A DNA stretch of 51,083 nt from Thermoplasmatales archaeon SW_10_69_26 (GCA_003009755.1 PXUB01000046.1:1-51083), one strand, 5' to 3'. Counted from the stretch's first letter, positions 18,685-43,706 are shown. The notes: generated from the letters alone by a model not told the origin. Program-made: numbers and translations.

Positions 18685-18978
18685 TCAGGCCAGCCCGTAC
18701 CGGGCGAGCTTGTTCGCGACGTCGTCCACGTCGTCGATGAACCGCCGACCGTGGGGCGTCAGCTCGAGTTCGTCACCGTCGTCGAGCAACCCCAGCTCGG
18801 CCATCTGTTCGACGTGATCCCAGAAGCGGTCGTGCGGTAGGTTGGCCTGCGATCTGACCCGGCTCGTCCGCAACGGCCCGGGTTGCGAGCGCTGCTCGCA
18901 GATGCCCTCGAGGACGTCGGCCCAGATCTCGAACCGATAGCGCTGTCGCTTGGCGCCTGGGATGGCGACCCTCCCCAT
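18685..18978 (-). CDS. Small archaeal winged-helix transcription regulator
   Basis: RYRFEIWADVLE...ANLPHDRF...MAELGLL...LTPHGRRF. Confidence 0.8.
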   Translation of the reverse strand: MGRVAIPGAKRQRYRFEIWADVLEGICEQRSQPGPLRTSRVRSQANLPHDRFWDHVEQMAELGLLDDGDELELTPHGRRFIDDVDDVANKLARYGLA

Positions 18979-19227
18979 ACTATGTACGAATCTGAACATA
19001 TACGAATGTTACGTAGGGCCATCGTCACCCGGCCGCCCTGACGGCAGATGGATTGTCGCCGCCTCGAACGGCCCCGCCGAGGCTCGCCGACCGGCGCTCG
19101 TTTCCCGCTCTCCCCGGAGAGCTCCGGGTCCCCGAACCCACCCGCTGGGCTGCGAAGATGTTCGTGCGCACGTCCAAGCCCTACTCCGCGGATGGCAGGG
19201 GTGCGAGCGGGAAGGAGTTGACCCACG

Positions 19228-19977
19228 ATGCCTACGAGATCGAGTTCTGCGGAAACCAGCGAGGAGACGGACGGTGAGGACGGCGTGGGCCGGATCCCCA
19301 GCGAGCCCGTCGTCGAGAAACGGGTCGATCTCCCCTGCCGTGCGGCCGGGTTCACGACACCGCCCTGCAAGGTCCAGCTGAAGTTCCTCCAGGAGGACGA
19401 GGGCTGGACGCTCGTGGCCACGACGCCGCCCGCCAAACCGCCGAAGGTGGCCCAGTGGCTCGAGGACCGCGACCCCGTGTCGATCCACATCGCGCCGGGC
19501 CTGTCGCCGAAGGTGCTGCGGGCCAACTTCGACGAGCTGCCGACGGACTGGGAGGCGCTGCTGACGATGGCCGACATCCGGTTCATCGAGGTCAACCCTG
19601 GCGGAGCGGCGTCGATCTTCGTGGAGGACACCTCCGCTCGCATCGAGGAGCTCGTCTCCTCGCTCGAGGAGGAGACCGCGGACGTGCGTGTCCGCGAGAT
19701 GCAGTCCGGTCCGCGCGAGGCCGGCGTCACCGCGCGCCAGCAGGAGATCCTCTCGCTGGCCGTGGCCCACGGCTACTACGAGATCCCGCACAACCTGACG
19801 CTGCGCGACCTCGCCGAGAAGCTCGACCTCAGCGTCGGCACCGTCTCCCAATTGCTGCGACGCGCCGAGGCGCGCATCATCACCAGCTACGTGGACGCCG
19901 TCTCGGAGTCGCGCTGGGAACGCGAGTCGATCCGCGAGTCGATCGAGACCCTCGACCTGGCGCCCTCCGACGTCTGA
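19228..19977 (+). CDS. HTH_10 (bacterio-opsin activator-type) regulator
   Basis: TARQQEILSLAVAHGYYEIPHNLTLRDLAEKLDLSVGTVSQLLRRAEARII; start uncertain. Confidence 0.85.
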   Translation: MPTRSSSAETSEETDGEDGVGRIPSEPVVEKRVDLPCRAAGFTTPPCKVQLKFLQEDEGWTLVATTPPAKPPKVAQWLEDRDPVSIHIAPGLSPKVLRANFDELPTDWEALLTMADIRFIEVNPGGAASIFVEDTSARIEELVSSLEEETADVRVREMQSGPREAGVTARQQEILSLAVAHGYYEIPHNLTLRDLAEKLDLSVGTVSQLLRRAEARIITSYVDAVSESRWERESIRESIETLDLAPSDV

Positions 19978-20238
19978 TCGTCGCGCTCGGCCTCGAGCCG
20001 ATCGAGGCCGGGCTCTCCTCCGCCGGCCGCTTGCTTCTCCCCCAGCCGAGACCTTCGCCGGATCGGTCTCGGCCCTCGAGGTTCGCACCTCAGCAGGGCC
20101 GATGCTCACCGACTCACGAGGCGCCCTGGGACCGGGCATCACGGGTGGAGATCGACGCCGGCGGAGCCCCGACATGTGGCCGTCAGCGAGGGTCCATGTG
20201 TTGGCCCCGACGCAAGGAGGGAACGCGGGTGACGCGCA

Positions 20239-21018
20239 GTGGTATGCAACGAACGCGAGAAGGCTGAGACGGCGGGCGGTGCGGACGGTCGATCACGGTC
20301 CCGGTTCCCGGGCTTCTCCTTCCTCTGGGTCGTGGCCGTCGTCAGCCTGCTCGGGCTCGCCGCGCCCGCCCTCGCGCAAAGTCAAAGCGGCGGCGGAAGC
20401 AGCGAGGACTGCACCGGCGGCGGCGTCAACGGCGAGTGCAACGCGTTCGGCAGGATCGCCATGCAGAACCGCGAGGAGGTCCGCGGCGAGCCGGTCGACG
20501 TGAACACGACCGTGACGCTGAACACCTCCTACGAGGACCGGGGCGCCCGCTGGGTGATGTTCTCGGTCCGCAACGTCACCGCCGACGGCGACAGCCCCGT
20601 CTCGATCCGGCTGAACTCGTTCGCCACGGACGAGGGCGAGGTCGTCACGACGCGCGTCGTGCACGAGGAGCCCAACGAGCTCAACCTGTGGGTGGACGTG
20701 CTCGATCTCCCCGTCCACAAGGAGATCGAGATCGACGTCACCGTCGGCGTGACCGACGAGGGCGCCTACGCGTTCGAGACGCTCGTGCTGGCCTTCGACC
20801 GCGGCTACGACCCCGTGCAGATGGCGAACGGTGACAAGGCCAGCCTGTTCTCGTACACGCTGCTCGGTGTCAACGAAGCCACCGACCCGATCGGCAGCTC
20901 TACCTCCTCGGACGGCGCCTTGGGCGTGCTGAGCGAGATCCCCGCTCCTTCGGCGCTGGCCACACTGGGCACGATCACCCTAGCCGCCGCAGCCTGCCTC
21001 GGGAGGGAGCCGCGATGA
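20239..21018 (+). CDS. Secreted protein with C-terminal sorting signal
   Basis: Signal peptide ending APALAQ; beta-rich core; SEIPAPSALATLGTITLAAAACLGREPR tail. Confidence 0.7.
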   Translation: MVCNEREKAETAGGADGRSRSRFPGFSFLWVVAVVSLLGLAAPALAQSQSGGGSSEDCTGGGVNGECNAFGRIAMQNREEVRGEPVDVNTTVTLNTSYEDRGARWVMFSVRNVTADGDSPVSIRLNSFATDEGEVVTTRVVHEEPNELNLWVDVLDLPVHKEIEIDVTVGVTDEGAYAFETLVLAFDRGYDPVQMANGDKASLFSYTLLGVNEATDPIGSSTSSDGALGVLSEIPAPSALATLGTITLAAAACLGREPR

Positions 21019-21740
21019 TCCGCGGCCCCGATCCCGAGATGGGGAAGGTTCCCCGCCAGCTGACCGAGATCGTCGGGGACCGCCCCGGGATCCACTTCCG
21101 GGAGCTCAAACGGGCCGCGGATCTGTCCTCGAACGGGCAGCTTCGCCACCATCTGGACCGGCTGAAGCGCGAAGGCGTGCTCGTCGAGATCAAGGACGGC
21201 GGCTTCAAGCGATTCTTCATCGCCGGCGAGCACGACCCCGAGCTCCGGCGAGGCCTGGCCCGGTTCGCGCGCCGCGTCCCGCGGTTGATCGCCAAGCTGC
21301 TGCTCCGGCAACCGTTGAACCGGACCGAGCTCCGCCAGCGGTTGGACTGCGCCGATTCGACGCTGGGCTACCACCTCAACCGCATGATCGAGCTCGGCGA
21401 TCTCGAGCGCAACCGCCAGGGCAACATGTGCCTGTACTCGCTGACGGACCCACCCTTCGTGCGGCACGTGCTGCACGATCTCGGCGAGACGTTCCCGGGG
21501 GAGGCGCCCAAGACGGACGGCGAGGTGCCCGCCGCCCAGATCGCGCGCCGTCACTACGAGAACCTGGGCCCCGGCTGGTCCCTGCACCGGGACCACCCGC
21601 CGCAGCGATCGCCCGACGGCGAGCCCGAGGCCAAGGCGATGGGGGCTGCCCGTCGACGGGATGGCAAGGCCGAGTCCTCCCTGGACGCCGGCACCGTCGG
21701 CGAGGACCTGGAGGTCGTCGAGTGGCCCCGTCCTGGGTAG
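21015..21740 (+). CDS. Double winged-HTH transcription regulator
   Basis: PGIHFRELKR...GQLRHHLDRL and TELRQRLDCADSTLGYHLNRM; ATGA overlap with upstream gene. Confidence 0.82.
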   Translation: MIRGPDPEMGKVPRQLTEIVGDRPGIHFRELKRAADLSSNGQLRHHLDRLKREGVLVEIKDGGFKRFFIAGEHDPELRRGLARFARRVPRLIAKLLLRQPLNRTELRQRLDCADSTLGYHLNRMIELGDLERNRQGNMCLYSLTDPPFVRHVLHDLGETFPGEAPKTDGEVPAAQIARRHYENLGPGWSLHRDHPPQRSPDGEPEAKAMGAARRRDGKAESSLDAGTVGEDLEVVEWPRPG

Positions 21741-23050
21741 CATGGATCCGCCGATGGAGCCCACGGCTCGCCGACATCCTGGAGAAAGCCCAGCACCGCA
21801 ACGCCTACTACCTGATGGCCAGCCAGGCGGCCGCGGCCGCTGCCGGCCTGCTGTTCTGGTGGCTTCTGACGGCGGTGGGCCAGGTACCCGCCGACCAGGT
21901 CGGTGTCGGGTACGCGATCGTGTCGATGGGCGCCACCGTGGGCGTCATCGCCAAGGGCGGCTTCGACGCCGCGCTCGTGCGCACCGTGCCCGAAGCCAGC
22001 GCCGACCACGGCCGTCGGTTGCTGTGGCTGGCCGTCGGCCTGGCGTCCGCCATCGCCATCGGGCTCGCGCTCGCGCTCGGCCTGGCCGCCACGGTCACCT
22101 CGGCGCTGCCCGACTTCACCGCGCTCGGCTGGACGCTCGTCGCCGCGATCGGCGCGCTCATGGTGACGACCTGGCTGCAGGACGCCTACTTCATGGGCGA
22201 GGGCGACGCCAAGCACACCTTCCACCGCAACGCGGTCCTCTCGGGCGCCCGCATGCTGCTCCCGCTGCCGGTGGTCGCGCTCGCCTTGCCCCAACCGGTC
22301 GCGACGAGCTGGGGCTTGGCTCTGGGTGTCTCGGCCGCGACCGCGGCCATCGCCACCTACCGGCTCCCTTCGCGGCAGGGCGAGATCGTCCCGGAGGGCA
22401 CGTTCCTGCGGCGCGCGGTCCGCAACATCACCGGCGGCGCCGCCCAGTTCCTGCCCGGCCTGTTGCTCGTCCCGATGATCTTGGTCATCAACGGGCCCGA
22501 CGCGGCCGGGTACTTCGGGATCGCCTGGACGGCGGCGAACCTGCTGTTCCTCGTGTCCTCGGCGATCGCGCGCAGCGCCCTGGCCGAGATGGCCGGCGAT
22601 CGTCCCGAGCGCGAAGAGGCCGAGGCGATCCGCAAGGGCACCCTGCAGCACCTGTGGATCGTCGCCCCAGCCGCGATCGTCGGCATCCTGTCGGCCCCGT
22701 ACCTGTTGGCGATCTTCGGGCCGGCCTACGCCGACCGCGCCGCGACCACGTTCCGCATCCTGTGCGCCAGCAGCGCGTTCGTCTCGCCCTTCTACCTGTA
22801 CTTGGCCGTGCTCCGTGCCCGCGACGACCCCGGTCCGTTGATCGTGTTCCCGGCGGCGATGATCGCCGTCCTGTTCGTGATCGCGCCGCCCTTCAACGCC
22901 CGGTTCGGGTTCTCCGGCGTGGCCGTGGCCTGGTTCCTGGCCAACGTGCCCTTCGGGCTCTACGCCGCCCTCAAGCTCAAGCAGCACGCCAGGGAGGTGA
23001 TCCAGCCTGCCGGACCCGCGCCTGTCCGTGCTGATTCTCACCTGGAATGA
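21722..23050 (+). CDS. Wzx/MOP-family oligosaccharide flippase
   Basis: About 12 TM helices; NAYYLM...GLLFW...VGVGYAIVS...GGFDAALVR and AAGYFGIAW patterns; start uncertain. Confidence 0.82.
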   Translation: MAPSWVAWIRRWSPRLADILEKAQHRNAYYLMASQAAAAAAGLLFWWLLTAVGQVPADQVGVGYAIVSMGATVGVIAKGGFDAALVRTVPEASADHGRRLLWLAVGLASAIAIGLALALGLAATVTSALPDFTALGWTLVAAIGALMVTTWLQDAYFMGEGDAKHTFHRNAVLSGARMLLPLPVVALALPQPVATSWGLALGVSAATAAIATYRLPSRQGEIVPEGTFLRRAVRNITGGAAQFLPGLLLVPMILVINGPDAAGYFGIAWTAANLLFLVSSAIARSALAEMAGDRPEREEAEAIRKGTLQHLWIVAPAAIVGILSAPYLLAIFGPAYADRAATTFRILCASSAFVSPFYLYLAVLRARDDPGPLIVFPAAMIAVLFVIAPPFNARFGFSGVAVAWFLANVPFGLYAALKLKQHAREVIQPAGPAPVRADSHLE

Positions 23051-23987
23051 GGTCGAGGACATCACCGACTGCCTGCACGCGATCGAGGACCAGACCGAGC
23101 GCCGGATCGAGGCCGTCGTGGTCGACGCCGACAGCGACGACGGCACGATCGAGGCGATCGAGGCCGCCCGGGACCGGATGGAGGTGCCGGTGCGGCTGGA
23201 CGTGGCCGACGAGCGGTTGCCGATCGGGGAGGCCCGCAACCGGGCCGTGGGCTTGGCTGGCGCCCCGAACGTGGCCTTCGTCAGCGCCGACGTCGAGCTG
23301 CACGAGGACTGGGCCCGCCAGGCGCTGGCCTCGCTCGAGGACGCCGACATGGTTTTCTCCCGCCAGGTGCACGCCCCCCGATCCTGGTCCGTGGGCGCGG
23401 CCGCCCGCGGCCTGCGCTACCACTTCCCCGACGAGCCGACCGACGACCCGCTGCGGTATGCCTCCAACGCGGCCGCCGCCTACCGACGCGAGGTCCTCGA
23501 GACGTTCCCCGTCGACCCCGCCGTCGTCGCCGTCGACGACCTGTTGCTCGCCGCCCGCGCCGCCCGCGCCGGCCACGAGGCCACCTACAACCCGGCGATG
23601 GTCGCCTACCACCACGACGTCGCCGACCTCGCGGGCGAAACGAGTAAGTGCGTGCGCGAGGCGCGGGGATGGGGCCTCAACGTGCACGAGCTGGGCCCCA
23701 TGACCCCCGTCCTCGCTTGGGGCTTGGCTCTGCTCGCGGTCTTGGCCGTCCTCGCCGGCGGCCTGCTCGGGCTCGGGCTGGCGACCGTGCTCGCCGTGGT
23801 CGTCCTGTGGGCGCCGGTCGTGCGGCGGGTGCCGCGGGCCCTCGGCCAGATGCCGCCGACGGCGCTGGCCGGTGGGGTCCTGGTGGGCCCGTTCCTGGAT
23901 CTCGTGTTCCTGTTCAACTACGCGCGGGGGCTTTGGGAGGCCCTGGTCTCGCGACCGAGCGCCGACCCCGAGGGGATGCAACGATGA
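23007..23987 (+). CDS. GT2 glycosyltransferase with C-terminal TM helices
   Basis: LSVLILTWNE, VVDADSDDGT, ARNRAV; GGAGGTGA SD points to CTG 23007 (alternative GTG 23028). Confidence 0.85.
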   Translation: MPDPRLSVLILTWNEVEDITDCLHAIEDQTERRIEAVVVDADSDDGTIEAIEAARDRMEVPVRLDVADERLPIGEARNRAVGLAGAPNVAFVSADVELHEDWARQALASLEDADMVFSRQVHAPRSWSVGAAARGLRYHFPDEPTDDPLRYASNAAAAYRREVLETFPVDPAVVAVDDLLLAARAARAGHEATYNPAMVAYHHDVADLAGETSKCVREARGWGLNVHELGPMTPVLAWGLALLAVLAVLAGGLLGLGLATVLAVVVLWAPVVRRVPRALGQMPPTALAGGVLVGPFLDLVFLFNYARGLWEALVSRPSADPEGMQR

Positions 23988-25312
23988 CCACGATCGAGAA
24001 CGCCAACCCGAGCGCCGACCACGCGACCGTGTTCGTGATCCTGGACGCAGGCCGGTCCGACTACGTCCGCGAAGACGCGATGCCGTTCCTGCACGGGCTC
24101 AGCCGGACCGGCTACCGGGGCTCGTTCGAGAGCCCGCCCGGCTTCGCCCAGCGCACGACGATGTTCAGCGGGCGCTACCCGGACACCTCCGGCAACTTCA
24201 GCCAGTTCGTGTTCGCCCCCGAGCGCTCGCCCTTCGACTGGGTCGAGTCGCTGGGCCCGTTAGGCAAGCTCGTCCGTCCGCGCAAGGTGCTGGCCCCCAC
24301 GCGCTGGGCGATCGACTGGATCACCGCGAAGAAGACCGGCCACTTCCAGACCGATCCCGCCTGGATCCCGCCCGAGTTCATGCCCTACTTCGCGATGTGC
24401 GAGGACACCCAGCCCGTGTTCGAGGACGGGGCGCTGGGCGCGCCCAGCATCTTCGACCTGTGCCGCGAGCACGGGTTGGCCTTCCGCTACCTGGCGCACC
24501 CGGTCAGCGGCGACGACGAGGAGGTGTTCGACACGCTCGTCCGCGAGCTCCGCCAGCATGCCCCCTACGATCTCTACCTGGCGCAGTTCAGCATCACCGA
24601 CGAGGGCGGCCACGAGCACGGCCCGTTCAGCGACGCGATGCAGCAGCGGTTCCTGCGCGACGTCGACGCCAAGCTGGCCACGATCCACGCGCTGTTGTCC
24701 ACCCGCTACGACTCCTGGGACCTGTTCGTCGTCGGCGACCACGGCATGGCGCCGGTCGAGCAGCGCGTCGACGTGCTCTCGGCGTTGGCGGAGACCGAGG
24801 CCGAGCCAGCCGAGGATTACGTCGTCTTCGTCAACAGCACGCTCGCGGTCCTGTGGTACCTGACCCCGAAGGGACGGAAGGCGATCCGGGCCAAGCTGCC
24901 CGAGATCGAGGGCGCCCGCGTGCTCGACGAGGACGAGCGCCGCGACCGTCGCATCCCGACCGAGGAGCGCTGGGGTCAGGACATGCTCGCCGCCGAGTCG
25001 GGCGTGCTGTTCTGGCCGGACTACTTCCACGTGAGGGACTCCACCGTGCGCGGCATGCACGGCTACCTCGACAAGTCCGACGAGGGGCTGGGCATGGCCG
25101 TGCTGGCCTCCAGCGACCCCGTCGTGGAACCCCGGGAGGCCGACCCGCGCTCGCTGGTGGACGTGTTCGCCACGCTTTGCGGGCTGCTGGGCCTGCCCGT
25201 TCCGGACACCCAGGAGGGCACCAGCCTGCTGGATCGGGCCCGCAGGGAACCGCCGGTGGCCGAACCCGAGCAAGAGCCCCCCGAACCCGAGCAGGTCGTC
25301 TCCGATGGCTGA
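23984..25312 (+). CDS. Alkaline phosphatase superfamily (nucleotide pyrophosphatase/phosphodiesterase-like) protein
   Basis: VILDA, DEGGHEHG, GDHGM, GMHGY metal-ligand motifs. Confidence 0.82.
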   Translation: MTTIENANPSADHATVFVILDAGRSDYVREDAMPFLHGLSRTGYRGSFESPPGFAQRTTMFSGRYPDTSGNFSQFVFAPERSPFDWVESLGPLGKLVRPRKVLAPTRWAIDWITAKKTGHFQTDPAWIPPEFMPYFAMCEDTQPVFEDGALGAPSIFDLCREHGLAFRYLAHPVSGDDEEVFDTLVRELRQHAPYDLYLAQFSITDEGGHEHGPFSDAMQQRFLRDVDAKLATIHALLSTRYDSWDLFVVGDHGMAPVEQRVDVLSALAETEAEPAEDYVVFVNSTLAVLWYLTPKGRKAIRAKLPEIEGARVLDEDERRDRRIPTEERWGQDMLAAESGVLFWPDYFHVRDSTVRGMHGYLDKSDEGLGMAVLASSDPVVEPREADPRSLVDVFATLCGLLGLPVPDTQEGTSLLDRARREPPVAEPEQEPPEPEQVVSDG

Positions 25313-26348
25313 GCCCACGTACACGATCCACGACTCCCCCGAGGTCGTCGAGCGGATCGAGACCGATCTGGCCACGATCGTCGATCGCGTTCGCGAGGCC
25401 GACCCGCACCTGCGCTCGTTGATCTTGACCGGCGGGTTCGCCCGCGGCGAAGGAACGGTCGTCGACGGGGCCCCGCAAAACGACTACGACCTCGTGGGCA
25501 TCCGGGGCCTCGGCAGCCCGCAGCGACCCTACGAGGACGTGCGCCGCGAGCTGGAGGACGAGATCGGGCTCCACATCGATCTGGCCCGCGTCCCCTCCTG
25601 GCGGCTGCGCTGGGTTCCGGCCTCGATCTTCTGGTACGAGACCCGCCACCGGGGCCGATGCCTGTGGGGGGAGGACCTGCTGGGCCGCATCCCGATCGAG
25701 GACCGCGAGGACCTGGCCCCCAGCGAGGGTTTGCGCTTGCTCGTCAACCGGGCGGCCGGCCTGTTGCTGGTGACCCGGGCCAACGACGATCACGCCCACC
25801 GCATCCAGGCGGCCAAGGGCTTGCTCGCCGCGCTGGACGCCCACCTGTTCGCGCTGGGCGCCTTCCCCCCCAGCCAGACCGAACGCTGGGACCGGTTCCG
25901 CTCGCTGCGAGCCGACGACGCGGTGCCGGCGGTGCTGGACCGCCACACCGACTGGCTGCGCTGGGCGTTGGGGTTCAAGGTCGACCCCGAGGGGGTCGAC
26001 GCCCGGGACGGGCTCGAGGCCTGGCGGGCGGCGGCGCGAGCGATCCTGGACGCGGTCCCCGTCTCCCTGGACCACGCGGGGTACGACTCGTTGGAGGACT
26101 ACGAGACCAGCGACGGCCTGATCGACCACCTGCACTTCTTCCGTCACGCCGGCGCGATCCCGCAGGCGCCGCGCCTTATGCGCCATCCGACCGGCCGGGT
26201 GCGGACGGCGACGCTGCGGTTGCTGGAGGCCTCCCAGGACGGGCTCGTCCGGCACGAGGACGCCCGCGAGTGCCTGGGCTCGATCGCCGAGGTCGACGGG
26301 CAACCCCTCAAGCTGTTGGACGACCTGCGCGACGCCACGCTGCAGTGA
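25305..26348 (+). CDS. Pol-beta-like nucleotidyltransferase domain protein
   Basis: SLILTGGFARGEG...NDYDL, third Asp in HIDL, helical C-terminal domain. Confidence 0.7.
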   Translation: MAEPTYTIHDSPEVVERIETDLATIVDRVREADPHLRSLILTGGFARGEGTVVDGAPQNDYDLVGIRGLGSPQRPYEDVRRELEDEIGLHIDLARVPSWRLRWVPASIFWYETRHRGRCLWGEDLLGRIPIEDREDLAPSEGLRLLVNRAAGLLLVTRANDDHAHRIQAAKGLLAALDAHLFALGAFPPSQTERWDRFRSLRADDAVPAVLDRHTDWLRWALGFKVDPEGVDARDGLEAWRAAARAILDAVPVSLDHAGYDSLEDYETSDGLIDHLHFFRHAGAIPQAPRLMRHPTGRVRTATLRLLEASQDGLVRHEDARECLGSIAEVDGQPLKLLDDLRDATLQ

Positions 26349-26351
26349 GGC

Positions 26352-35451: not shown

Positions 35452-36969
35452 CTAGTCTTCGATCGGTTGCACCTGCCGGGGCGCCGGCAACGTCGCGTTC
35501 AACGGGACGGCGAGATCGTGGACGAGCAGGGCTCCGCGTTCCAGGCTCTCGTCGGCCGGTCGCACCGGTGTGATCAGCTCCACCGTGTCGTCGCCGTCGA
35601 CGTCGACGGGGTGGGGAGCGCGCAGCATCTTCCAGGGATGCAGGGAGAGGAACCCCTCGGCGCGGCCGTCCTCGGTGGACAGGCGCCAGACGCCGTCGTT
35701 GCCGTCGACGGGCGCGTTGAGCAAAAGCTCCTGGTCGGGGTCCGGGTCGAAGTCGCCGAGCACGATGTTCTGGTTGGACCACCAGGTGTCGATCTCGCGC
35801 ATCCAGACGTCGTCGCCGGTTGCGTCCAGGCGGAAGACGTGGGCGGGACCCAGGCGTTCCCAGTTGCCGGGGCGGTGCCCGATCGTGTTCCAGTCCATGC
35901 CGAAGATGTCGGGGGAGCCGTCGTCGTCGACGTCGTCGACGACGAGGCGCGTGTAGCTCATCGGGTTCGCCCACGCCGGTTCGCGCAGCCACACGAGCTC
36001 GGAGGAGCCGTTGGTACGGTCGCCGTGGATCGCGAAGATGCCCATGCGGTTGCGGTCGTACTGGCCTTCGACGTCGTGGGTTGCGTTCCGGGCGGTGAAC
36101 AGGATCTCCTTGGGCTCCTCGCCGTCGAGGTCGGCCACGGTGGGGGCCACCGTGACCGAGGCCGGGTCCATGTGCTCGGCCGCATCGAAGGTCCAAAGCG
36201 GGTTCCCGCTGGCGGCGTCGAACACGGTGATGAGGCCGGCGTCGGAGGCGAAGACCGCCTCCACGGAGCCCTCCCCGGCGAGGTCGGTGGCCACGGGTTC
36301 GGCGTTGCCGGCGCCCCAGCAGTGGTTCCACATCGTCGAGCCGTCGGTGTCGAGCCCGTAGATGCCCTGCTCTTCGGTCTGGACGAGGATCTCGAGCGTG
36401 TCGTCGCCGTCGAGGTCAGCCAACACGGGGCCCGCGTCCATGCTCGGGCTGTCGTTGCAGTTGGTCAGGCGGTTCTCCCACCGCTTGTCGAAGGCGATCT
36501 CGTCCTCGCCGCCGGCGTCGGGGTTGACCTGCCAGGCGGAGACGTAGCCGGCGTGGTTGGTGACGACGACGGTCGGCGGCTGACCGGGCTCCATCACCGC
36601 GGCCGCGGGAGAGTTGAGGATGCGTTGGATGTGCCAGGCCGGCGGGTAGTGGGGCGACAGCGTGGCCAGCTCCGTGCCGGACTGGGGATCGTAGATGTGG
36701 ACGTCGGCGTCGTTGCTGTGCGCGATGACCTCCTGGATCCCGTCGTCGTCGAGGTCGTAGGTCTCCGGGTCGTTGTCGAACGGGCCCGGCCAGTCGTCGG
36801 CCCCGGACGTGTCGGGATCGCCCAACGTCGCGGTGAGGCCGGGACCGCTGTCGCCGTCCTCGGTCCAGTTGGAGGCCTGGTCGCTGGCGGTGTCCGAGGA
36901 CAGAAGGCACCCGCCCATCGGGGCCGACAACATCACCACGCCGATGAGGAGGGCGCGAGCGCGGGTCAC
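35452..36969 (-). CDS. FG-GAP/VCBS-repeat beta-propeller lipoprotein
   Basis: Lipobox-like MGGC; repeated D[LV]D.DG..E[IV] calcium loops (DLDDDGIQEV, DLDGDDTLEI, DVDDDGSPDI, DVDGDDTVEL). Confidence 0.8.
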   Translation of the reverse strand: MTRARALLIGVVMLSAPMGGCLLSSDTASDQASNWTEDGDSGPGLTATLGDPDTSGADDWPGPFDNDPETYDLDDDGIQEVIAHSNDADVHIYDPQSGTELATLSPHYPPAWHIQRILNSPAAAVMEPGQPPTVVVTNHAGYVSAWQVNPDAGGEDEIAFDKRWENRLTNCNDSPSMDAGPVLADLDGDDTLEILVQTEEQGIYGLDTDGSTMWNHCWGAGNAEPVATDLAGEGSVEAVFASDAGLITVFDAASGNPLWTFDAAEHMDPASVTVAPTVADLDGEEPKEILFTARNATHDVEGQYDRNRMGIFAIHGDRTNGSSELVWLREPAWANPMSYTRLVVDDVDDDGSPDIFGMDWNTIGHRPGNWERLGPAHVFRLDATGDDVWMREIDTWWSNQNIVLGDFDPDPDQELLLNAPVDGNDGVWRLSTEDGRAEGFLSLHPWKMLRAPHPVDVDGDDTVELITPVRPADESLERGALLVHDLAVPLNATLPAPRQVQPIED

Positions 36970-37742
36970 TCGCCCATCTCCGGGGCCGAGGGGTAGCTGT
37001 TGGGCGTGGGCCGTTCGACCGGTTGCTCGCGGTCGAGGGGCACGAACCGGGATCGCACCAGCCACCAGACGATGCGGACCGCGTCGAAGAGGCTGAGCTT
37101 CGAGGAGCCGCGGCGCGGCAGGTAGTCGATCGGCACGTGTTCGATGTCGAGGCCGAAGCGGCTGGCGAGGGCGAACATCTCGGCCTCGAGCTCGAACCGG
37201 TAGCTTTGCAGCGGCAGCGCGTGCAGCGCCTCGCTGCGGAAGCTCCACATGCCCGTGCACAGGTCCGGGCACCGTTGCTGGTAGAGGCCACTGGCGAGCA
37301 TCGACAGGGTGGCGTTGCCGAAGCGATGGAGGCTGGACATGGCGCCTTCCTGCGGGTGGCGGCTGCCCATGACGACGTCGGCCTCCCCCCAGGCCAGGGG
37401 GGCCAGGATGCGGGGGATCGCCTCGGGCGGGTAGGTGCCGTCGGCGTCCAGCATGACGACGTAGTCGCCGTCGAAGAGGTGGCGGGCGTTGATCAGCGCC
37501 TGCGCCTTGCCGGGGTGGCGGTCGAAGACGACGGTGGCGCCGCCGTGCTTGTACACGATGTCGCGGGTCTGGTCCTCGCTGTGCCCGTCGAGCACCATCG
37601 TCTCGACGTCGAAGCCGAGCGTCTCCAGCGTCTCGTAGGGGATCGAGCGAAGCGTGGGCCCGATGGCCTTCTCCTCGTTGCGGGCGGGCAGCACGATCGT
37701 GACGAGCCCTGTCTCGGGCTTGGTCCCGCGGTGGGCGCTCAT
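36966..37742 (-). CDS. GT2, dolichol-phosphate glycosyltransferase-like
   Basis: VLPARNEE, DGHSEDQT, GKAQA, MLDADGTYP, VMGSR, DLCTG, RRGSSKL. Confidence 0.9.
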   Translation of the reverse strand: MSAHRGTKPETGLVTIVLPARNEEKAIGPTLRSIPYETLETLGFDVETMVLDGHSEDQTRDIVYKHGGATVVFDRHPGKAQALINARHLFDGDYVVMLDADGTYPPEAIPRILAPLAWGEADVVMGSRHPQEGAMSSLHRFGNATLSMLASGLYQQRCPDLCTGMWSFRSEALHALPLQSYRFELEAEMFALASRFGLDIEHVPIDYLPRRGSSKLSLFDAVRIVWWLVRSRFVPLDREQPVERPTPNSYPSAPEMGE

Positions 37743-39490
37743 CCCTGCACCCCCGTGAGCTCGTGAAGCACGACGCGGTGGCGGGGGCTGATCTCCTCCG
37801 AGCACCAGCTGTCGACGACGCGCCAGTCCTCGCTCTCGAGGAACGAGGCGTCGGCGTCGGGGTGCTCGTTGCGCAGATGGCGGTCCTCGACGACGTACAG
37901 GGGCTGGCCCTCCTCGCGGGCCAACGTCATCGCATCCTTGCGTTCGCGCTCGTCGACCCAGAACGTTTCCTTGTACCACACGCGGTCGGGGTTCTCGGTG
38001 ACGGCGGAGAGCACGATCGCGGGCCGCCAGTCGCCGCCGACGACGACGGCGTCGGGATCCTGCTCGGCGACCTCGGAGACGTCGTGCATGGCCTCCATCT
38101 CGCAGGGCTCGTACAGGCGGTACCAGCCGTCGGCGTAGTGGCTGGGCGTGCCGGCGAAGACGGCCCCGCCGAGGCTGCCGGCGACGAGCAGGACGGGCGC
38201 CATCGCGACGACGGGGCGCTCGAGCGCGCCTTGCACCGGCGAGGGCTTGGCAACGTGGTCCTCCCAGGCGACGCGGGCCCATCGGGCGAAGTGGCCGCCG
38301 GCGACGCCGACGAGCAGGACCAAGCCCATGCCGAGGTAGACGACGGTGCGGTGGGGCCAGTAGGGGCTGCCCAGCGGGTTGTACATCACCAGCGGGTAGG
38401 TGGCGGTCGCGATCGCGCCGGCCAGGTAGGCCAACCGGCCAGCCATGAACGGCAACAGGACGAAGGCGAGCGCGGCCAGGCCCAGCAGCGGCCAGCCGAG
38501 CATGCGCGGGGGATCGACCAGCAGCGGGAGGCCGCCGGCGAGGGCGGGCCAGGTGACGCCGACGAGGGCGAGCGCGAGCACGAGGCTGACGCCCGCGCGC
38601 AGCCACACCGGTCGCGGCCCGGCGTCGCGTTCGGGCAGCCAGCGCTCGAGGTTGTCGGACTGCACGACGAGGAACACCGCCGGCAGGAAGCTGAGCACGA
38701 GGACGAGCGGGGCGATCATCGTGAACAGGTTCCCGTAGGGCAGGATGCCGCCGAACCCGGGGCCACAGAAGCCGGCGCAGGTGGACAACACCAAGCCCAA
38801 GCTGCCGCCGACGACGGCGAGCGCGGCCGCGAACCCTGGGGAGGATAGCCGCGGCGAGCGCGTGGTCGGCCAGGGGAGCACCAGGGCGAACACCGCGAAC
38901 ACGACGCCGGTCAGCGCCAGCAGGCCGTACAGCCACGGGTGGGCGAACACGAGGAACACGGCCAACGGGGCCGCGATGCCGACCCAGGCCAGCTTGCCCT
39001 CCAACACCTCCAGCAAGGCGAAGAACAGGAACGGGAGCAGCGCCAGGTCGACGGCCGTGGGGGCCATCATCGTGGTGCGGTGGATCAGCTCGGGCGCCAG
39101 CGCCATCGCGAGCGTGCCGACGAACGCTGCCACGCGGCCGGCGTGCTTCCACAAGAGGACCGCCGTGCCGATCATAGCCAGGGCACCGAGCAGGACCGGC
39201 GAGAACCGGACGAGCTGGTACAGGTCGACCCCGGTGAAGGTCCACAACGCGGCCACGAGGGCGTGCATGCCCGGTGGGTAGAGGCCGCCGGGTGGGTTCA
39301 GCGGGTCCAGGGTCCCGGTGAGCAGGTGCTCCTTGACGAGCACCATATGGGTGAAGGGATCCTCGGCGGGCAACACGGGGGTGGACAGCGGGTCGCTGAG
39401 GCGGAGCAAGGCTCCCAGGGCGATCGCGAGGGCCACCGGGACGGCGCCGATGAGGTGGGCTGGGTCAAGGTTACGAAGCGCCCCTTTCAT
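37739..39490 (-). CDS. Polytopic GT-C-fold membrane glycosyltransferase candidate
   Basis: N-terminal TM then AEDPFTH and YPPGMHAL loop motifs, about 13 TM helices, external C-terminal domain; coupled to the Dol-P GT2. Confidence 0.65.
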   Translation of the reverse strand: MKGALRNLDPAHLIGAVPVALAIALGALLRLSDPLSTPVLPAEDPFTHMVLVKEHLLTGTLDPLNPPGGLYPPGMHALVAALWTFTGVDLYQLVRFSPVLLGALAMIGTAVLLWKHAGRVAAFVGTLAMALAPELIHRTTMMAPTAVDLALLPFLFFALLEVLEGKLAWVGIAAPLAVFLVFAHPWLYGLLALTGVVFAVFALVLPWPTTRSPRLSSPGFAAALAVVGGSLGLVLSTCAGFCGPGFGGILPYGNLFTMIAPLVLVLSFLPAVFLVVQSDNLERWLPERDAGPRPVWLRAGVSLVLALALVGVTWPALAGGLPLLVDPPRMLGWPLLGLAALAFVLLPFMAGRLAYLAGAIATATYPLVMYNPLGSPYWPHRTVVYLGMGLVLLVGVAGGHFARWARVAWEDHVAKPSPVQGALERPVVAMAPVLLVAGSLGGAVFAGTPSHYADGWYRLYEPCEMEAMHDVSEVAEQDPDAVVVGGDWRPAIVLSAVTENPDRVWYKETFWVDERERKDAMTLAREEGQPLYVVEDRHLRNEHPDADASFLESEDWRVVDSWCSEEISPRHRVVLHELTGVQG

Positions 39491-39634
39491 GGCCGTGGTT
39501 CTATCGCGGACGGCTAAAGGGGGTGTTGGGACGACCATCGGTAGAGCCTTGCTACGTGGTGGGGATGGCGGTTCGAGCGCTCGCGCGCTGGGACGATCGT
39601 GGTGGAACCCTGATGGGGCGAGGGCCGGCTGGTC

Positions 39635-40111
39635 GTGGACGTGAGCCCTCGAGACCGCCTCGACCGTGGGGACGACGTTGCCGGAAGCGACGACGGTGGG
39701 CTCGCCCGCCTCAAGCGTTCGGCCGACATCCTCGTCGTCGTGGGCTTGGCGCTGGCGTCGGCGGCCGCCGCGGCCGTGTTGCCGGCCGGCAGCACGGCCC
39801 GGATCGTGTTGGCGGTGCCGATCGTGTTGCTGGCACCCGGGTACCTGCTTTTGCAGGCCCTGCTCGTGCCGACCCGGTCGCGGCGCGAGCGCGGCCGCCA
39901 CCTGCTGTTCAGTCTGGGCCTGAGCCCGGCGCTCGTCGGCCTGCTGGCCCTGTCGACCGCGATCGTCCCCGGCGGGTTCAAGCGTGCCGTCATCGCGGCC
40001 GTCGTCACGGTCGGCTGCGTGGCCTTCGCCGGCGTGGGCCTCTGGCGCCGGTGGTCGACCGAGCGCGTGCTCGCCGGCGAGGACGAGGACGACGTGACGC
40101 ACACGGCGTGA
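39635..40111 (+). CDS. DUF1616-like membrane protein
   Basis: RIVLAVPIVLLAPGYLLLQAL...FSLGLS motif. Confidence 0.7.
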   Translation: MDVSPRDRLDRGDDVAGSDDGGLARLKRSADILVVVGLALASAAAAAVLPAGSTARIVLAVPIVLLAPGYLLLQALLVPTRSRRERGRHLLFSLGLSPALVGLLALSTAIVPGGFKRAVIAAVVTVGCVAFAGVGLWRRWSTERVLAGEDEDDVTHTA

Positions 40112-40330
40112 GGTATCGCCGGGGGCCAACCGTCCGCCCAGCAGCCTCGACGGTGGTCAGGGGTGGTTGCCCGCGGTCCTCCCCAGAGGGGTCGTCTCGT
40201 TCCTCGGCCGAGGGCGACCACGGGCGCTACACCCCACACTGAAACGTGGACGGACGGACATCTCTCTGGCGGGAAGATATCAACGTCCCGCTGCCTATAA
40301 CGACGGTGACCGAGCACGCTAGCGGTGCCG

Positions 40331-41155
40331 ATGGACCGAACCGGTCGAAGCCGCGGAAGCCGAGCCAGCACCGTGACCGTGCTCCTGATCGCCGCCACCC
40401 TCGCGCTGTGGGGGGCCGCCCCCGCGATCGCCTCCGCGGGGGTGGACTCGCCCGAGGCCTCACAGGTCGACGACGGAGGCGAGCCCTCCTGTGAGGACGA
40501 CGGGCTCGAGCTCTTCAACGACAACAATCAGTCCCAGCCGGAGATCAACGTGACCTGGGACGACGACGCCAAGGGGTTCTGCGTGGAGTCCTCGAAGGAG
40601 ATCTCCAACGTCTGGGTCGAGTTCTGCAGCGGGACCAAGCACAAGCACGACAACCTCGACGGCAAGGTGTACGACCACCGGGAGGACGAGGAGATCACCC
40701 GCATCTGGGTGAAAAGCGGCAACAACGGTCAGGAGGACAACCAGCCGCCCGGCGCCGGCGAGGAGTTCACCAACCCCCACGTCGAATGCGAACCCGGCGA
40801 CGAGTGCAGCGGGCCCGAGGACCTCGAAGGTGAGGCTCTCGAGACCGAGGCCAATCGCCTCAACTGGTCCTCTGTCGAGGACGCCCACGCGTACCACGTC
40901 TACCGGGCTGTCGAGAACGGGTCCTTCCAACGCATCGCGACGCTGAACGCGACCCAGTACGTGGACGCCAACGTGACGGTGGACATCACGTACCACTACT
41001 TCGTCACGGCCTCGATCGGCCAGACGGAGACGGAGGGGTGCGTGAAGATCGAGGTCATCGCGATCCCGACCTTCCCGTCGGTGTTCACGGCAGCTGCCGC
41101 CTCGCTGGGCGGGCTGGCGTTGTACGGGACCTACCGCTACCGGAGCGACGACTGA
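40331..41155 (+). CDS. Secreted Cys-containing protein with FN3-like domain and IPTF-TM anchor
   Basis: Signal peptide; LNWSSV...YHVYRA...YVDANV...YHYFVTA; AIPTFPSV-TM-RYR tail. Confidence 0.72.
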   Translation: MDRTGRSRGSRASTVTVLLIAATLALWGAAPAIASAGVDSPEASQVDDGGEPSCEDDGLELFNDNNQSQPEINVTWDDDAKGFCVESSKEISNVWVEFCSGTKHKHDNLDGKVYDHREDEEITRIWVKSGNNGQEDNQPPGAGEEFTNPHVECEPGDECSGPEDLEGEALETEANRLNWSSVEDAHAYHVYRAVENGSFQRIATLNATQYVDANVTVDITYHYFVTASIGQTETEGCVKIEVIAIPTFPSVFTAAAASLGGLALYGTYRYRSDD

Positions 41156-41169: not shown

Positions 41170-41203
41170 CCCGGCGGCGCTGCCGCCGGGTTCTCTTCTT
41201 GTC
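41170..41203 (+). terminator. Hairpin terminator between convergent genes
   Basis: CCCGGCGGC-gct-GCCGCCGGG followed by TTCTCTTCTTGT. Confidence 0.55.
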
Positions 41204-41223
41204 TGTTCGTCGACCTGGGCCGC

Positions 41224-43185
41224 CTAGGACGGTTCGCCGGGTTCCTGGGTCGACTCCATGCCGACGGTCTCGGGCGGCGGCGCCACCTCGAACTCGACCC
41301 AGTCCTCGGGCTCGGCGTCCTGCAGGGGGATGCCGTCGAACTCGGCCGGCTCCAGCGTCCGGTAGGAGAGGTAGGCGTACGTCGGAGCCGAGAGGAAGAA
41401 CAGACCGTACAGCGTCAGCCATCCCGCCAGGAACGCGGTCCCGATCGCCTCGGGATCGGGGCGGACGAGCGTGGCGTTGACGGCGGCGACGGCGACGAGC
41501 ACGATCCCCATGACGGTCTCGAACGTCGTCAACCGGATCGAACGCAGCAGCGCTCCCGAGCGGGACAGATCCTGGCCCAGGCCCTTGGGGGTGCGCACGA
41601 ACGGCGTGCTGAAGCCGAGCATGTACTTCAGCGTCGCCGCGACGTTCGTGATCTTGATCGAGAACCACATCCCCTGCACGAGCAACGAGTCCCACACGCG
41701 CACGTCGTCGGCTTGGCGCAACACCAGGTGCAACCGGACGATGCTGTCGACGAACAGGGCGATCGGGACCAACGTCAACAGCAACAGCTCGCGCTGGTGG
41801 TGGGTGACGGCGTCGTAGCCGATGACGGGTCCCAAGCCCATGTACAGCAAGGCGAGGGCGATCGCGGTGACGAACAGGCCGTCGAACCAGTGGAGGTTCG
41901 AGACCATGAAGTCGACCTTCTGGCGGCGGCTCATGTCCGAGCGGAGGATCGCCTTGGCCCGCGAGAACAGGATCTTGACGTTGCCGAACGCCCACCGATG
42001 GAACTGGCTTTTGTAGGCCTCGAACACGGCCGGCATCAAGCCCTCGCCGAAGGACTCGTCCACGTACAACGAATCCCAGCCGGCCGCGGCCAGGCGGACG
42101 CTGATCTCGGCGTCCTCGCAGATCTGATCCTCGGCGAACCCGCCCACGTCCTCGAGCGCGCTGCGGCGCATCATGCCCATCGTGCCGCAGAAGATGATCG
42201 CGTTCTGCTCGTTGCGCGAGGGCATGATGGCGTGGTAGAAGTACGCCTCTGCGCGCTTGTACTGGCGCGTGAGGAACGACTCGTCCTCGTTGCGGTAGTC
42301 CTGGGGCGTCTGGACGAAGCTGATGTTCGGGTCGGCGAAGTACCCGACGATCGACTTCGCGTAGTCGGGTTCCACCCAGTAGTCGGCATCGATGACCGAC
42401 ACCAGCTCGTAGGTGGGCGGCAGGCGCGCGATCGCGTGGTTCAACGCGCCGGCCTTGAAGCCCTCGCGCTCCTCGCGGGTGACGTGTTGGGCGCCGGCGC
42501 GCTCGCAGAAGGCCTTCAGCTCCCGGCGAGCCTCGGGATCGTCGCTGTCGTCGATGACGACGACGGTGAACCGGTCGCTGGGGTAGTCCTGGCGGACGAG
42601 GTGGGCGACGGTCTGCTGCACGAGCTCCACCGGCTCGTTGTAGACCGGCACCAGGAACGCGAGCTTGGGTTGCAGCATCGGATCCCACTCGCGGACCTCC
42701 GCCAGGCGGGTCCAGCGCCGCCGCGTGGCAGCGTCGAGGCTGTAGAAGCTGAAGATCACGATGAGGGGGAGGCCGCCGGTCTCGGCGGCGAGCAACAGGT
42801 AGCTGAGCCAGCGTTCGCCGGGCGGGACCTGCGGGATCGAGACGGTGACCGAGTAGACCAGGAACCCGACGATCAACGAGACGAGCCCGAAGTAGCTAAG
42901 CAGGCCGGCCCCCCGCCAGCGGTAGCGGGCCACAGCGACCCCCATCGCGGCGCCGGCCCCGACGAGCACGACCAGCCAGGGCGTCAGCTCTTGGAAGGGA
43001 TGCAACAGCTCGTAGGGCAGCTGGCTGAAGGAGGCCTCCGCGATGACCGGAGCTGCCATCAGCAACGCACCCAGACCGTAGGTCAGCAACCCGAAGATGC
43101 CGCCGGTCACTGCCCCGAGGAGCCACCGCCAGGCCCGCAACCAGAGAGGGTCGAGGGACGAAGCGGGGTCCGGGCTCGGGGTCAC
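41224..43185 (-). CDS. Processive GT2 glucan synthase (NdvB/BcsA-like)
   Basis: PVYNE, IDDSD, GFKAGALN, IDADY, VQTPQDY, IIFCGT, ICED, QFHRW (QxxRW), FVRTPK; N- and C-terminal TM bundles; no PilZ or fused GH seen. Confidence 0.9.
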   Translation of the reverse strand: MTPSPDPASSLDPLWLRAWRWLLGAVTGGIFGLLTYGLGALLMAAPVIAEASFSQLPYELLHPFQELTPWLVVLVGAGAAMGVAVARYRWRGAGLLSYFGLVSLIVGFLVYSVTVSIPQVPPGERWLSYLLLAAETGGLPLIVIFSFYSLDAATRRRWTRLAEVREWDPMLQPKLAFLVPVYNEPVELVQQTVAHLVRQDYPSDRFTVVVIDDSDDPEARRELKAFCERAGAQHVTREEREGFKAGALNHAIARLPPTYELVSVIDADYWVEPDYAKSIVGYFADPNISFVQTPQDYRNEDESFLTRQYKRAEAYFYHAIMPSRNEQNAIIFCGTMGMMRRSALEDVGGFAEDQICEDAEISVRLAAAGWDSLYVDESFGEGLMPAVFEAYKSQFHRWAFGNVKILFSRAKAILRSDMSRRQKVDFMVSNLHWFDGLFVTAIALALLYMGLGPVIGYDAVTHHQRELLLLTLVPIALFVDSIVRLHLVLRQADDVRVWDSLLVQGMWFSIKITNVAATLKYMLGFSTPFVRTPKGLGQDLSRSGALLRSIRLTTFETVMGIVLVAVAAVNATLVRPDPEAIGTAFLAGWLTLYGLFFLSAPTYAYLSYRTLEPAEFDGIPLQDAEPEDWVEFEVAPPPETVGMESTQEPGEPS

Positions 43186-43706
43186 GGTGCCACATCACCC
43201 GTCCGGACCTCGAAGATGCACGCCCTCGTCTCTTCGGGGTGGCACGAGACCTGCACCACCTCGGTGCCCGGTAGGAACTCACCCAGCGACCGTTCGAGCG
43301 TGTCCTGCTTCCAATCGCATCCGCCGCGAGACCCGCCCGGTCGGCAGGCCAGCCCGTCGACGAGCACCAGCGCGTGCGGGCCGGGCATGCCGGTCACGAT
43401 CTGGGGGGTGCCGACGCCGGCGCGCGCCGCGGCCATCAACAACAGCTCCTGCACCGCCAGCCGGGACTCGGGCGCGGGGCCGACGTCGGCGGACTCGAGG
43501 CCGCCCGTCGTCCGCTTGCGGCGGGGGCCGACGCTGGGCGTGGGTGAGCCGCGGCGAAGCGGCGTCCGCCTGGCGGCGAGGGCGAACGTGAGCGACAGCA
43601 CGAGGACGGCCGTCCCACCGAGGACGAGGATCAATGACCCTTCCTCCGGTGGCAGCAACCGCCGGGGATCGGTGACGTCGACGAGGGCGATGGCGGCAGG
43701 AGTCAT
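43182..43706 (-). CDS. Single-TM protein with V4R-like Cys domain
   Basis: C...GGCDW...L...L...EVVQVSC...RACIFEV; stop overlaps the synthase start. Confidence 0.55.
   Translation of the reverse strand: MTPAAIALVDVTDPRRLLPPEEGSLILVLGGTAVLVLSLTFALAARRTPLRRGSPTPSVGPRRKRTTGGLESADVGPAPESRLAVQELLLMAAARAGVGTPQIVTGMPGPHALVLVDGLACRPGGSRGGCDWKQDTLERSLGEFLPGTEVVQVSCHPEETRACIFEVRTGDVAP

Follow-up and report, generated by a model that had tools for sequence, protein, structure and literature searches.

A candidate envelope-polysaccharide locus in Thermoplasmatales archaeon SW_10_69_26 is a composite of a V4R-like/synthase module and an eight-gene cassette

Does the 25-kb region at positions 18685 to 43706 of a 51,083-nucleotide contig from Thermoplasmatales archaeon SW_10_69_26 (PXUB01000046.1, assembly GCA_003009755.1) encode one exopolysaccharide system built around a processive synthase, as an original prediction made from the sequence had proposed? 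It was found that the locus is a composite of two units, namely, a module formed by a BcsA-like synthase (g21) and a V4R-like partner (g22), and a cassette of eight genes (g05 to g10, g17, and g18); these two units most likely cooperate. Taken as a whole, the reading of the region as an envelope-polysaccharide locus whose separable units work together by the mechanism set out below is one that we put forward while granting it slightly less than an even chance. The locus points to an undescribed archaeal way of building a sugar coat.

The whole stretch, here called the window, makes up contig C46 of a metagenome-assembled genome (MAG), here named G000, of 2.8 Mb in 49 contigs and 95% completeness. 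As spurious open reading frames (ORFs) are common at the GC content of the window (approximately 70%), gene frames were chosen by third-position GC, and each gene was then tested singly. The comparison set consisted of 40 sampled relatives, comprising families f1 to f6 plus 20 genomes of other families. Among named public contigs, the nearest ones carrying the synthase are labeled "uncultured Thermoplasmatales," "Thermoplasmatota," or "Halobacteriales" archaeon. A haloarchaeal origin, suggested by the HTH_10 and HVO_* domain names and by acidic proteins, was dropped as a firm assignment, as the labels of the nearest public records are mixed, being mainly Thermoplasmatota/Thermoplasmata with a few Halobacteriales. 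Nearly every call in the originally predicted gene inventory was confirmed by Pfam, NCBIfam, or predicted folds. This holds for the QxxRW synthase, the exported GH-A/PKD protein, the FG-GAP lipoprotein, the pair of a dolichyl phosphate (Dol-P) family 2 glycosyltransferase (GT2) and a GT-C protein, the flippase, a further GT2, two family 4 glycosyltransferases (GT4s), the AlkP-family enzyme, the nucleotidyltransferase, the DUF1616 protein, four regulators, and the adjoining alpha-glucan operon, for each of which the evidence is given with the gene. The translationally coupled operons were also borne out, with ATGA, GTGA, or longer start/stop overlaps at eight junctions read.

A conserved eight-gene cassette

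The cassette was found when the proteins of the window were compared by tblastn with 13 loci around homologues of g18, a membrane glycosyltransferase with a GT-C fold. It is arranged in three blocks: g17 <- g18, g05 -> g06 -> g07 -> g08, and g09 <- g10. In 7 of the 13 loci (G019:C46, G008:C17, G018:C48, G014:C5, G006:C89, G005:C32, and G001:C34, given as genome and contig), the complete set of eight is contiguous, and five to seven of them are present at five further loci, some of which are cut by contig ends (G011:C11, G012:C142, G015:C296, G009:C105, and G016:C11). A paralogue locus on another contig of the window genome (G000:C1) carries only the GT-C gene (one of the eight); this second GT-C gene (G000:C1:20875-22623, locus L050) encodes a protein 49% identical to g18 and has no cassette genes around it. 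The order of the cassette is kept down to 30 to 50% protein identity. In f1, f4, f6, and G008 it is joined by FG-GAP, DUF1616, and small proteins resembling the end of g13, and in the window it is split, with g12, g13, g14, g15, and g16 lying between its arms. The cassette is the most conserved unit of the locus, and as it is contiguous and lies on contigs other than that of the synthase in f2, the locus is not organized around the synthase, contrary to what had been predicted.

In the window, four cassette genes belong to a plus-strand operon in the order g03, g04, g05, g06, g07, g08, with a start/stop overlap at each junction read. The product of g05 (21722..23050, +) is a Wzx/MOP-type flippase, the Atlas model of which superposes on Wzx/Polysacc_synt_3 clusters with a TM score of 0.85. 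It is followed by g06 (23028..23987, +), a GT2 (Pfam Glycos_transf_2, E 5.5e-16) with two C-terminal membrane helices by hydropathy, and by g07 (23984..25312, +), an AlkP-superfamily enzyme of the Phosphodiest/NPP type (PF01663, E 2.7e-20) in which no signal peptide was seen. The last gene, g08 (25305..26348, +), encodes a protein with a nucleotidyltransferase fold, the C-terminal domain of which is helical. It carries an invariant GGF[AS]RGEG..NDYD motif, in keeping with the G[GS]-x-D-x-D signature of ANT-like members of the Pol-beta superfamily, and the AlphaFold2 (AF2) model (pLDDT 92.7) has AadA/ANT(3'')(9) adenylyltransferases as its best folds, with Foldseek E values of 1.7e-4 to 5.4e-4 and modest TM scores (0.43 to 0.47 on model length and 0.55 to 0.60 on the shorter targets); a PDB sequence search returned only a designed protein. 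Convergent with this operon are the two GT4 genes, g10 (27470..28636, -; Pfam E 2e-29), the first of the pair, and g09 (26352..27482, -; Pfam E 4e-37), after which come g12 and g13.

The other cassette arm opens a minus-strand operon ordered g18, g17, g16, and then the GSDH propeller genes g15 and g14. ATGA overlaps were read at g03/g04, at g07, at g14/g15, and at g17/g18, and a GTGA overlap was read at g22/g21. The product of g17 (36966..37742, -) is a Dol-P-hexose-synthase-like GT2 (Pfam GT2, E 6.7e-20), and its best NCBIfam hit is AglJ (TIGR04182, 142 bits versus a cutoff of 325), followed by the haloarchaeal Dol-P hexose transferase (NF041391, 85 versus 375). The GT-C protein g18 (37739..39538, -) has approximately 13 hydrophobic segments and belongs to a small unnamed family (136 representative clusters in 1.84 billion). 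Its Atlas model (pTM 0.78) reaches TM scores of 0.63 to 0.70 to STT3 and PMT_2 clusters (0.67 to 0.70 for STT3). No Pfam match, to STT3 or to any other family, was found at E values up to 5, no WWDYG-type motif was seen by eye, and a PDB sequence search gave nothing useful (E 0.04). At E values up to 5, Pfam likewise returned nothing for g03, g05, g08, or g22.

In Haloferax volcanii, the Agl pathway employs the Dol-P GT2s AglJ and AglD, the flippase AglR, the Dol-P-mannose transferase AglS, and AglB. The cassette is similar in combining a Dol-P-hexose-synthase-like GT2, soluble glycosyltransferases, a Wzx-type flippase, and a multispan transferase acting extracellularly, in a comparison for which only the AglJ and AglG models were scored. 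It differs from Agl in that the scores are below the equivalog cutoffs, the GT-C protein has no STT3 match, and an ANT-like nucleotidyltransferase and an NPP-type enzyme are added. Two canonical STT3/AglB genes are located elsewhere in the genome (G000:C4 and C32), as are two other Wzx-type genes on other contigs. The cassette looks agl-like in its logic, but given these genes, it is not clearly the route of standard N-glycosylation. The possibility, raised with the original prediction, that these glycosyltransferases map to standard N-glycosylation agrees with the agl-like arrangement and the AglJ match of g17, whereas the STT3 and Wzx genes found elsewhere make it less evident.

The synthase module and the exported barrel protein

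The synthase gene, g21 (41224..43185, -), encodes a BcsA-like processive GT2 with eight predicted membrane helices. Pfam GT2 and Cellulose_synt matches were identified, as was a Glyco_transf_21 match (E 2e-13), and the NCBIfam models ranked CelA (198 bits) above PgaC (84) and NodC (49), all below cutoff, with MdoH weak. The top PDB match was Rhodobacter sphaeroides BcsA (E 6e-41; 4hg6, E 7e-41), and it spans the glycosyltransferase domain and the interface helices. Across 13 homologues, the residues DDS 212-214, DAD 266-268, FCGT 332-335, ED 357-358, and Q394..RW 397-398 are invariant, as are F529 and RTPK 531-534, which form an FxRTPK loop that we take to resemble the gating loop of BcsA and CesA. 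The protein shares with BcsA-BcsB (4hg6, 4p00, and 5ej1) the GT-A domain with its D, DxD, ED (TED), and QxxRW motifs, the FCG[ST]-type motif, and the eight helices, and like BcsA, it would export its own product as well as make the chain. Unlike BcsA-BcsB, it carries no PilZ domain by Pfam, profile searches of the 95%-complete genome gave no match to PilZ, GGDEF, or BcsB (PF03170), and the conserved partner is a one-helix V4R-like protein. Our best guess for the product is a glucan-type chain, with UDP-glucose as the putative donor and a beta-glucan as the putative polymer.

The partner gene, g22 (43182..43706, -), overlaps the synthase gene. In its product, a single hydrophobic helix is joined through a basic linker to a Cys-rich C-terminal domain of 75 residues, which has three invariant Cys residues and a C-terminal C-x-F-E motif. 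A word-index search identified 17 homologues. Eight of 19 family members match V4R (PF02830) weakly, with a best E value of 0.0018, and the family profile matched the V4R protein MJ1460 (2osd) with an E value of 1.6. Of the predicted V4R partner, the coupled gene thus stands, whereas the V4R label is weak. A homologous ORF is located upstream of the synthase in the loci of four families (f1, f2, f4, and f6); the f2 ORFs, directly upstream, were related to g22 by hhalign (95.7%, E 9e-9). Complex prediction for g21 and g22 gave a score of 0.73 (runs of 0.73, 0.77, and 0.68) versus 0.00 for the best control. In the benchmark, 58 of 80 solved complexes scored this high, as did 2 of 110 mismatched pairs; these counts hold only roughly here because custom alignments were used. 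The predicted contacts agree at at least 68%, the partner has a pLDDT of 59 to 64, and its helix is predicted to pack on g21 residues 31-43, 68-74, 93-115, and 469-491. The model supports the binding of g22 to g21 via the membrane helix, and by the positive-inside rule, the V4R-like domain would be cytoplasmic. A comparison of the g22 helix region with BcsA residues 547-587 gave an E value of 0.35, which was treated as not significant.

A separate observation concerns the DNA just upstream of the V4R-synthase pair, where four loci (L025, G011:C6; L028, G008:C102; L035, G018:C33; and L054, G012:C134) carry an exported lipoprotein of approximately 500 aa with a C-terminal anchor (cluster c7). 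Profile comparison of this lipoprotein, which is seen in family f2, with the GH-A-like family gave a probability of only 5.7%.

PMC5847659 reports receiver (REC)::BcsA-like glycosyltransferase fusions of the MTH_548 type in Methanobacteriaceae, which are similar in joining an archaeal BcsA-like GT2 to a non-PilZ signaling module. The sensor of the MTH_548 type is a fused receiver domain, whereas here it would be a separate, membrane-tethered V4R-like protein, and some paralogues are fused to a GT-C protein instead. The passages of PMC13725321 consulted held nothing relevant on archaeal synthases. A full-text literature search, from which subscription journals were largely absent, returned no characterized archaeal synthase-dependent system and no V4R-synthase or synthase-GT-C pairing.

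Between the cassette arms is g13 (30189..32927, +), which encodes an exported 912-aa protein with a GH-A-like barrel, six PKD stretches, and an Sde0182_C-type end (Pfam). Residues ~31-345 form a (beta/alpha)8 barrel (AF2 pLDDT 95.5; Foldseek E ~2e-10) that matches glycoside hydrolase (GH) clan GH-A, including GH26 lichenase 2bv9, GH1, GH5, GH10, and GH53, none of which stands out (VIA Z 20 to 22, root mean square deviation ~3.1 to 3.5 Å over 254 to 285 aligned residues, and 8 to 18% identity). A PDB sequence search with the domain gave nothing useful (best E 0.07). Of the 252 homologues, none has a Pfam family for the barrel; many carry PKD, PF16841, or PF01357 modules, which we take to be CBM60-like (PF16841) and expansin C-terminal (PF01357), and one bears a JGI name, "Ca-dependent carbohydrate-binding module." Named homologues of the barrel domain come mostly from "Thermoplasmatota" or "Thermoplasmata" MAGs. 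Relative genomes contain one to four matches to the domain (match counts rather than copy numbers), which in part adjoin the cassette and in part the synthase. The residues E120, E122, N124, D221, and E279 are invariant in the barrel family; as read from alignments and secondary structure rather than from superposed active sites, E120 and E122 follow strand 4, and the invariant residue at strand 7 is D221 and not Glu. Enzymes of clan GH-A have a catalytic Glu after strand 4 and a nucleophile Glu after strand 7. The protein is like clan GH-A in its barrel, and its relatives are fused to carbohydrate-binding modules, but it differs in the missing Pfam family and in the Asp at strand 7.

One system or two

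Whether the two units form one system was examined through gene order, fusions, and distribution. An ORF of 1,174 aa in G003:C72 and in G005:C2 encodes a BcsA-like synthase fused in frame to a full GT-C protein, the synthase half being 44% identical to g21 and the GT-C half 26 to 32% identical to g18. Six such fusions, of 1,169 to 1,240 aa, were identified in a collection of 5.8 billion proteins, and in four of the six, PMT_2 or STT3 Pfam matches (PF13231 or PF02516) stand beside the GT2 matches. Both fusion genes examined (G003:C72 and G005:C2) are immediately preceded by a V4R-type ORF, and in G012:C134, separate genes are ordered V4R -> synthase -> GT-C. In the light of these fusions and this order, the synthase, the GT-C protein, and the Dol-P GT2 can again be read as parts of one system. 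In G000, G001, G004, and G009, the synthase gene neighbors the arm that holds the GT-C and Dol-P GT2 genes; adjacency of synthase and GT-C genes was seen in three families. Gene order has been rearranged between genera while proximity was kept.

The regulator g04 (21015..21740, +), a helix-turn-helix (HTH) protein with HVO_0163_N and HTH_20 matches (Pfam E 4.8e-15), connects the units in another way. Its family has 15 to 25 matches per genome, and in all three f2 genomes searched the best match adjoins the synthase (E 2e-26, 2e-25, and 4e-24), the next-best matches being at 6e-16, 2e-18, and 3e-17. In the window, G001, G004, and G009, g04 heads the Wzx arm, the best match in G009 being beside the flippase, and at locus L014 the g03-g04 pair is directly upstream of the partner and synthase genes.

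The predicted co-conservation of the gene neighborhood was also seen, in the loci compared and in the distribution of four components. Strong matches among the 40 relatives were found for the synthase in 17, the GT-C protein in 18, the GH-A-like domain in 18, and g08 in 17. These share a common phyletic pattern (f1, 5/5; f2, 8 to 9/9; f4, 3/3; and f6, 1/1), and none of the four was found in f3, f5, or the 20 genomes of other families (22 of the 40 searched).

Several results weigh against this reading. All comparisons were made among fragmented, related MAGs, and as the compared genomes are kin, the shared distribution is weak support for linkage and may reflect only common descent. In f2, the cassette and the synthase are on different contigs in 6/6 relatives with both loci compared; thus, physical linkage is not required. 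The fused GT-C protein is a distant paralogue of g18, and given this distance (26 to 32% identity), the coupling seen in the fusions need not hold for g18. The synthase is far under the equivalog cutoffs (TIGR03030 [CelA], 198 versus 699; PRK11498, 132 versus 992), g22 itself has no V4R Pfam match at E values up to 5, and only its helix (residues 15-50) is confidently placed in the g21-g22 model. By alignment and what is known of the clan, the invariant Asp of g13 sits where clan GH-A has its nucleophile Glu. General Pfam scans of the window genes, the genome not having been searched by family, revealed no Wzy, chain-length regulator, or initiating phosphoglycosyltransferase.

Some of these points would suit two independent systems sharing a "glycan island," an explanation to which we give a substantial minority chance. 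The cassette would then be a lineage-specific, agl-type protein or lipid glycosylation system, in which a Dol-P-linked glycan is flipped by Wzx and transferred by the GT-C protein onto surface proteins or a lipoglycan, with the adjacent anchored propellers as candidate acceptors, while the synthase and its V4R partner would make an unrelated homopolymer. This agrees with the contiguity of the cassette apart from the synthase in f2, the best scores of g17 against AglJ and the haloarchaeal Dol-P hexose transferase, the likeness of the GT-C protein to STT3 and PMT_2 folds, the lack of recognized Wzy-like or chain-length genes in the Pfam scans of the window, and the anchored, exported g14 to g16 in the GT-C operon. 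It does not readily accommodate the BcsA-like::GT-C fusions, the V4R -> synthase -> GT-C order, or the g04 regulator lineage common to both units. Moreover, the needs of ordinary N-glycosylation could already be covered by the two canonical STT3 genes and the two further Wzx genes. The fusions lend themselves to another explanation, as they suggest a tightly coupled two-step membrane process: g21 might make a short or lipid-bound glucan or oligosaccharide, such as an osmoregulated glucan or the core of a glycolipid or lipoglycan, that is extended or transferred by the GT-C protein, so that the region as a whole builds a cell-envelope lipoglycan rather than an exopolysaccharide or capsule. Cultured wall-less members of the Thermoplasmatota carry lipoglycans, relatives of this lineage bear Thermoplasmatota labels, and g21 has the Glyco_transf_21 (E 2e-13) and weak MdoH matches; however, g21 has the full BcsA-type architecture (eight helices, FCGT, QxxRW, and the conserved FxRTPK loop), it matches CelA and BcsA far better than MdoH, and an exported GH-A-like protein whose family carries carbohydrate-binding modules fits a polymer substrate. 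This reading is considered improbable. Clustering without functional meaning, through an assortment of envelope genes or MAG misassembly kept by descent, is disfavored and very improbable: although all evidence comes from related, fragmented MAGs, and g01, g12, and g20 are not conserved in relatives' loci, proximity has survived rearrangement of gene order between genera, cassette order is preserved at 30 to 50% protein identity, start and stop codons overlap, and fusion proteins exist.

Under the preferred reading of two cooperating units, g21 would polymerize a nucleotide sugar and push the chain through its own eight-helix channel. The single membrane helix of g22 would hold the synthase, and its V4R-like domain would act as a cytoplasmic regulatory ligand sensor, taking the place that PilZ and cyclic di-GMP (c-di-GMP) have in bacteria. 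From the cassette, g17 would charge dolichyl phosphate with a hexose, g06, g09, and g10 would build a short lipid-linked glycan, g08 and g07 might add or process a phosphodiester-type substituent, and g05 would flip the lipid-linked product. On the outer face, g18 would transfer sugar, the proposed acceptor being the nascent synthase chain, for decoration or anchoring, and g13 would trim or remodel the polymer, with g04 controlling both units. The physiology originally predicted, a capsule or biofilm matrix, for example, for salt or desiccation protection, is conceivable but unsupported.

In the GtrA/GtrB/GtrC and ArnC/ArnT systems, a polyprenyl-phosphate GT2 and a GT-C protein decorate a polymer on the outward-facing side of the membrane. 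By analogy, the logic proposed for g17, g18, and the synthase product would be similar; here, however, a processive synthase is what the GT-C protein is linked to, and some relatives encode the two as a single polypeptide. The stronger form of the proposal, namely, a new archaeal machine in which a BcsA-like synthase, gated by a membrane-tethered V4R small-molecule sensor rather than by PilZ and c-di-GMP, is physically coupled to a dedicated GT-C protein that uses the cassette's dolichol-linked donor to branch, cap, or anchor the chain emerging from the channel, is possible but doubtful. If true, the "synthase-dependent" and "lipid-linked/Wzx" routes, which are treated as alternatives in bacteria, would be merged into one assembly line. 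Cooperation of the two routes would change the classification of polysaccharide pathways and shed light on the cell envelope of a Thermoplasmatota-labeled lineage that is widespread and uncultured. The compact two-protein synthase module, with a regulator that would not be c-di-GMP based, is a testable part, and the natural synthase::GT-C fusions suit cryo-electron microscopy and in vitro reconstitution. The locus also brings to light three conserved unannotated families: the GT-C protein, the GH-A-like barrel, and the ANT-like nucleotidyltransferase.

Other genes of the locus and its surroundings

The minus-strand operon continues beyond the GT-C arm with three exported proteins. The lipoprotein g16 (35452..36933, -) is an FG-GAP-like beta-propeller (Pfam FG-GAP_3, 1.5e-8; PQQ_2, 3.6e-7) with a lipobox-like N terminus read by eye, and it is found beside the cassette in G001, G005, G008, G009, G012, and G015. 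Next are two GSDH-family beta-propellers, g15 (34161..35441, -; Pfam E 2.1e-49) and g14 (32950..34164, -; Pfam E 1.2e-42), each having both a signal peptide and an anchor at the C terminus; a g15 homologue is present in G005:C28. Two anchored pyrroloquinoline quinone (PQQ) sugar dehydrogenases had been predicted here. The two anchored GSDH propellers were recovered, but the PQQ label was unsupported, as their scores for NCBIfam TIGR03606 were 106 and 91 bits versus a cutoff of 434, and no PqqE above cutoff was found in the 95%-complete genome. Any roles of the GSDH propellers and g16 in the system are putative.

Divergent from g18 is g19 (39635..40111, +), a DUF1616 membrane protein matched in its N-terminal part only (Pfam E 3.2e-13) and found beside the GT-C gene in G001, G004, G005, G009, and G012. 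It is followed by g20 (40325..41155, +), which encodes an exported protein with a C-terminal anchor and no known family (weak GH85_C match, E 0.004); a weak homologue was seen in G005:C28, and it is otherwise counted as not conserved in relatives' loci. The first gene of the plus-strand operon, g03 (20239..21018, +), encodes an exported protein in which hydropathy shows a signal-like helix at the N terminus and an anchor at the C terminus; no Pfam or NCBIfam match was found for it. A motif composed of E-[IV]-P-x-x-x, a hydrophobic helix, and a basic tail is common to the C-terminal ends of g03, g14, and g15. By eye it resembles PGF-CTERM-type sorting signals, and g20 ends similarly. A gene of the exosortase/archaeosortase family is present on contig C6 (G000:C6:15022-15687).

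Besides g04, the locus encodes three regulators. The small winged-helix regulator g01 (18685..18999, -; HTH_45, Pfam E 1.2e-5) was not found in relatives' loci, so that its membership in the system is doubtful. The HTH_10 regulator g02 (19228..19977, +; Pfam E 4.6e-15) is conserved between the Dol-P GT2 gene and g03 in G001:C34 and G004:C76. The response regulator g12 (29289..30092, -; REC, Pfam E 4.7e-18), which has a helical tail, was not found in relatives' loci. An ORF at 28461-29273 (-) was rejected as a gene, as it is Arg rich, has low third-position GC, and gave no family match. As this ORF looks spurious, the ~650 nt between the start of g10 and the stop of g12 (28637-29288) are without a credible ORF in any frame, an unusually long ORF-free gap for so compact a region. 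An Rfam scan of the window found only three tRNA genes, at 6097-6170 (+), 10786-10858 (-), and 50957-51041 (+), and nothing in 28637-29288.

An alpha-glucan operon encoding GH15, glycogen-synthase-like GT4/GT5, and GH57 proteins (44445-48804) adjoins the synthase operon. In G001, G002, and G005 it likewise lies next to the synthase operon, and in G014, G006, and G019 weaker matches to GH15 and GT4 occur at a distance of approximately 15 kb from the synthase. A link to the supply of a glucose donor is possible. Between the synthase operon and the GH15 gene, there is a small Cys-rich, zinc-ribbon-like ORF without a family (43940-44239, +), the position of which is conserved in G001, G002, and G005. 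Immediately upstream of the locus, the window encodes two very large secreted proteins, one of 921 aa with MAM-like domains (10930-13695) and one of 1,575 aa that combines an S8 subtilase with MAM-like domains (13733-18460). S8 protease genes also occur in G019, G014, and G018 in the vicinity of the synthase homologue.

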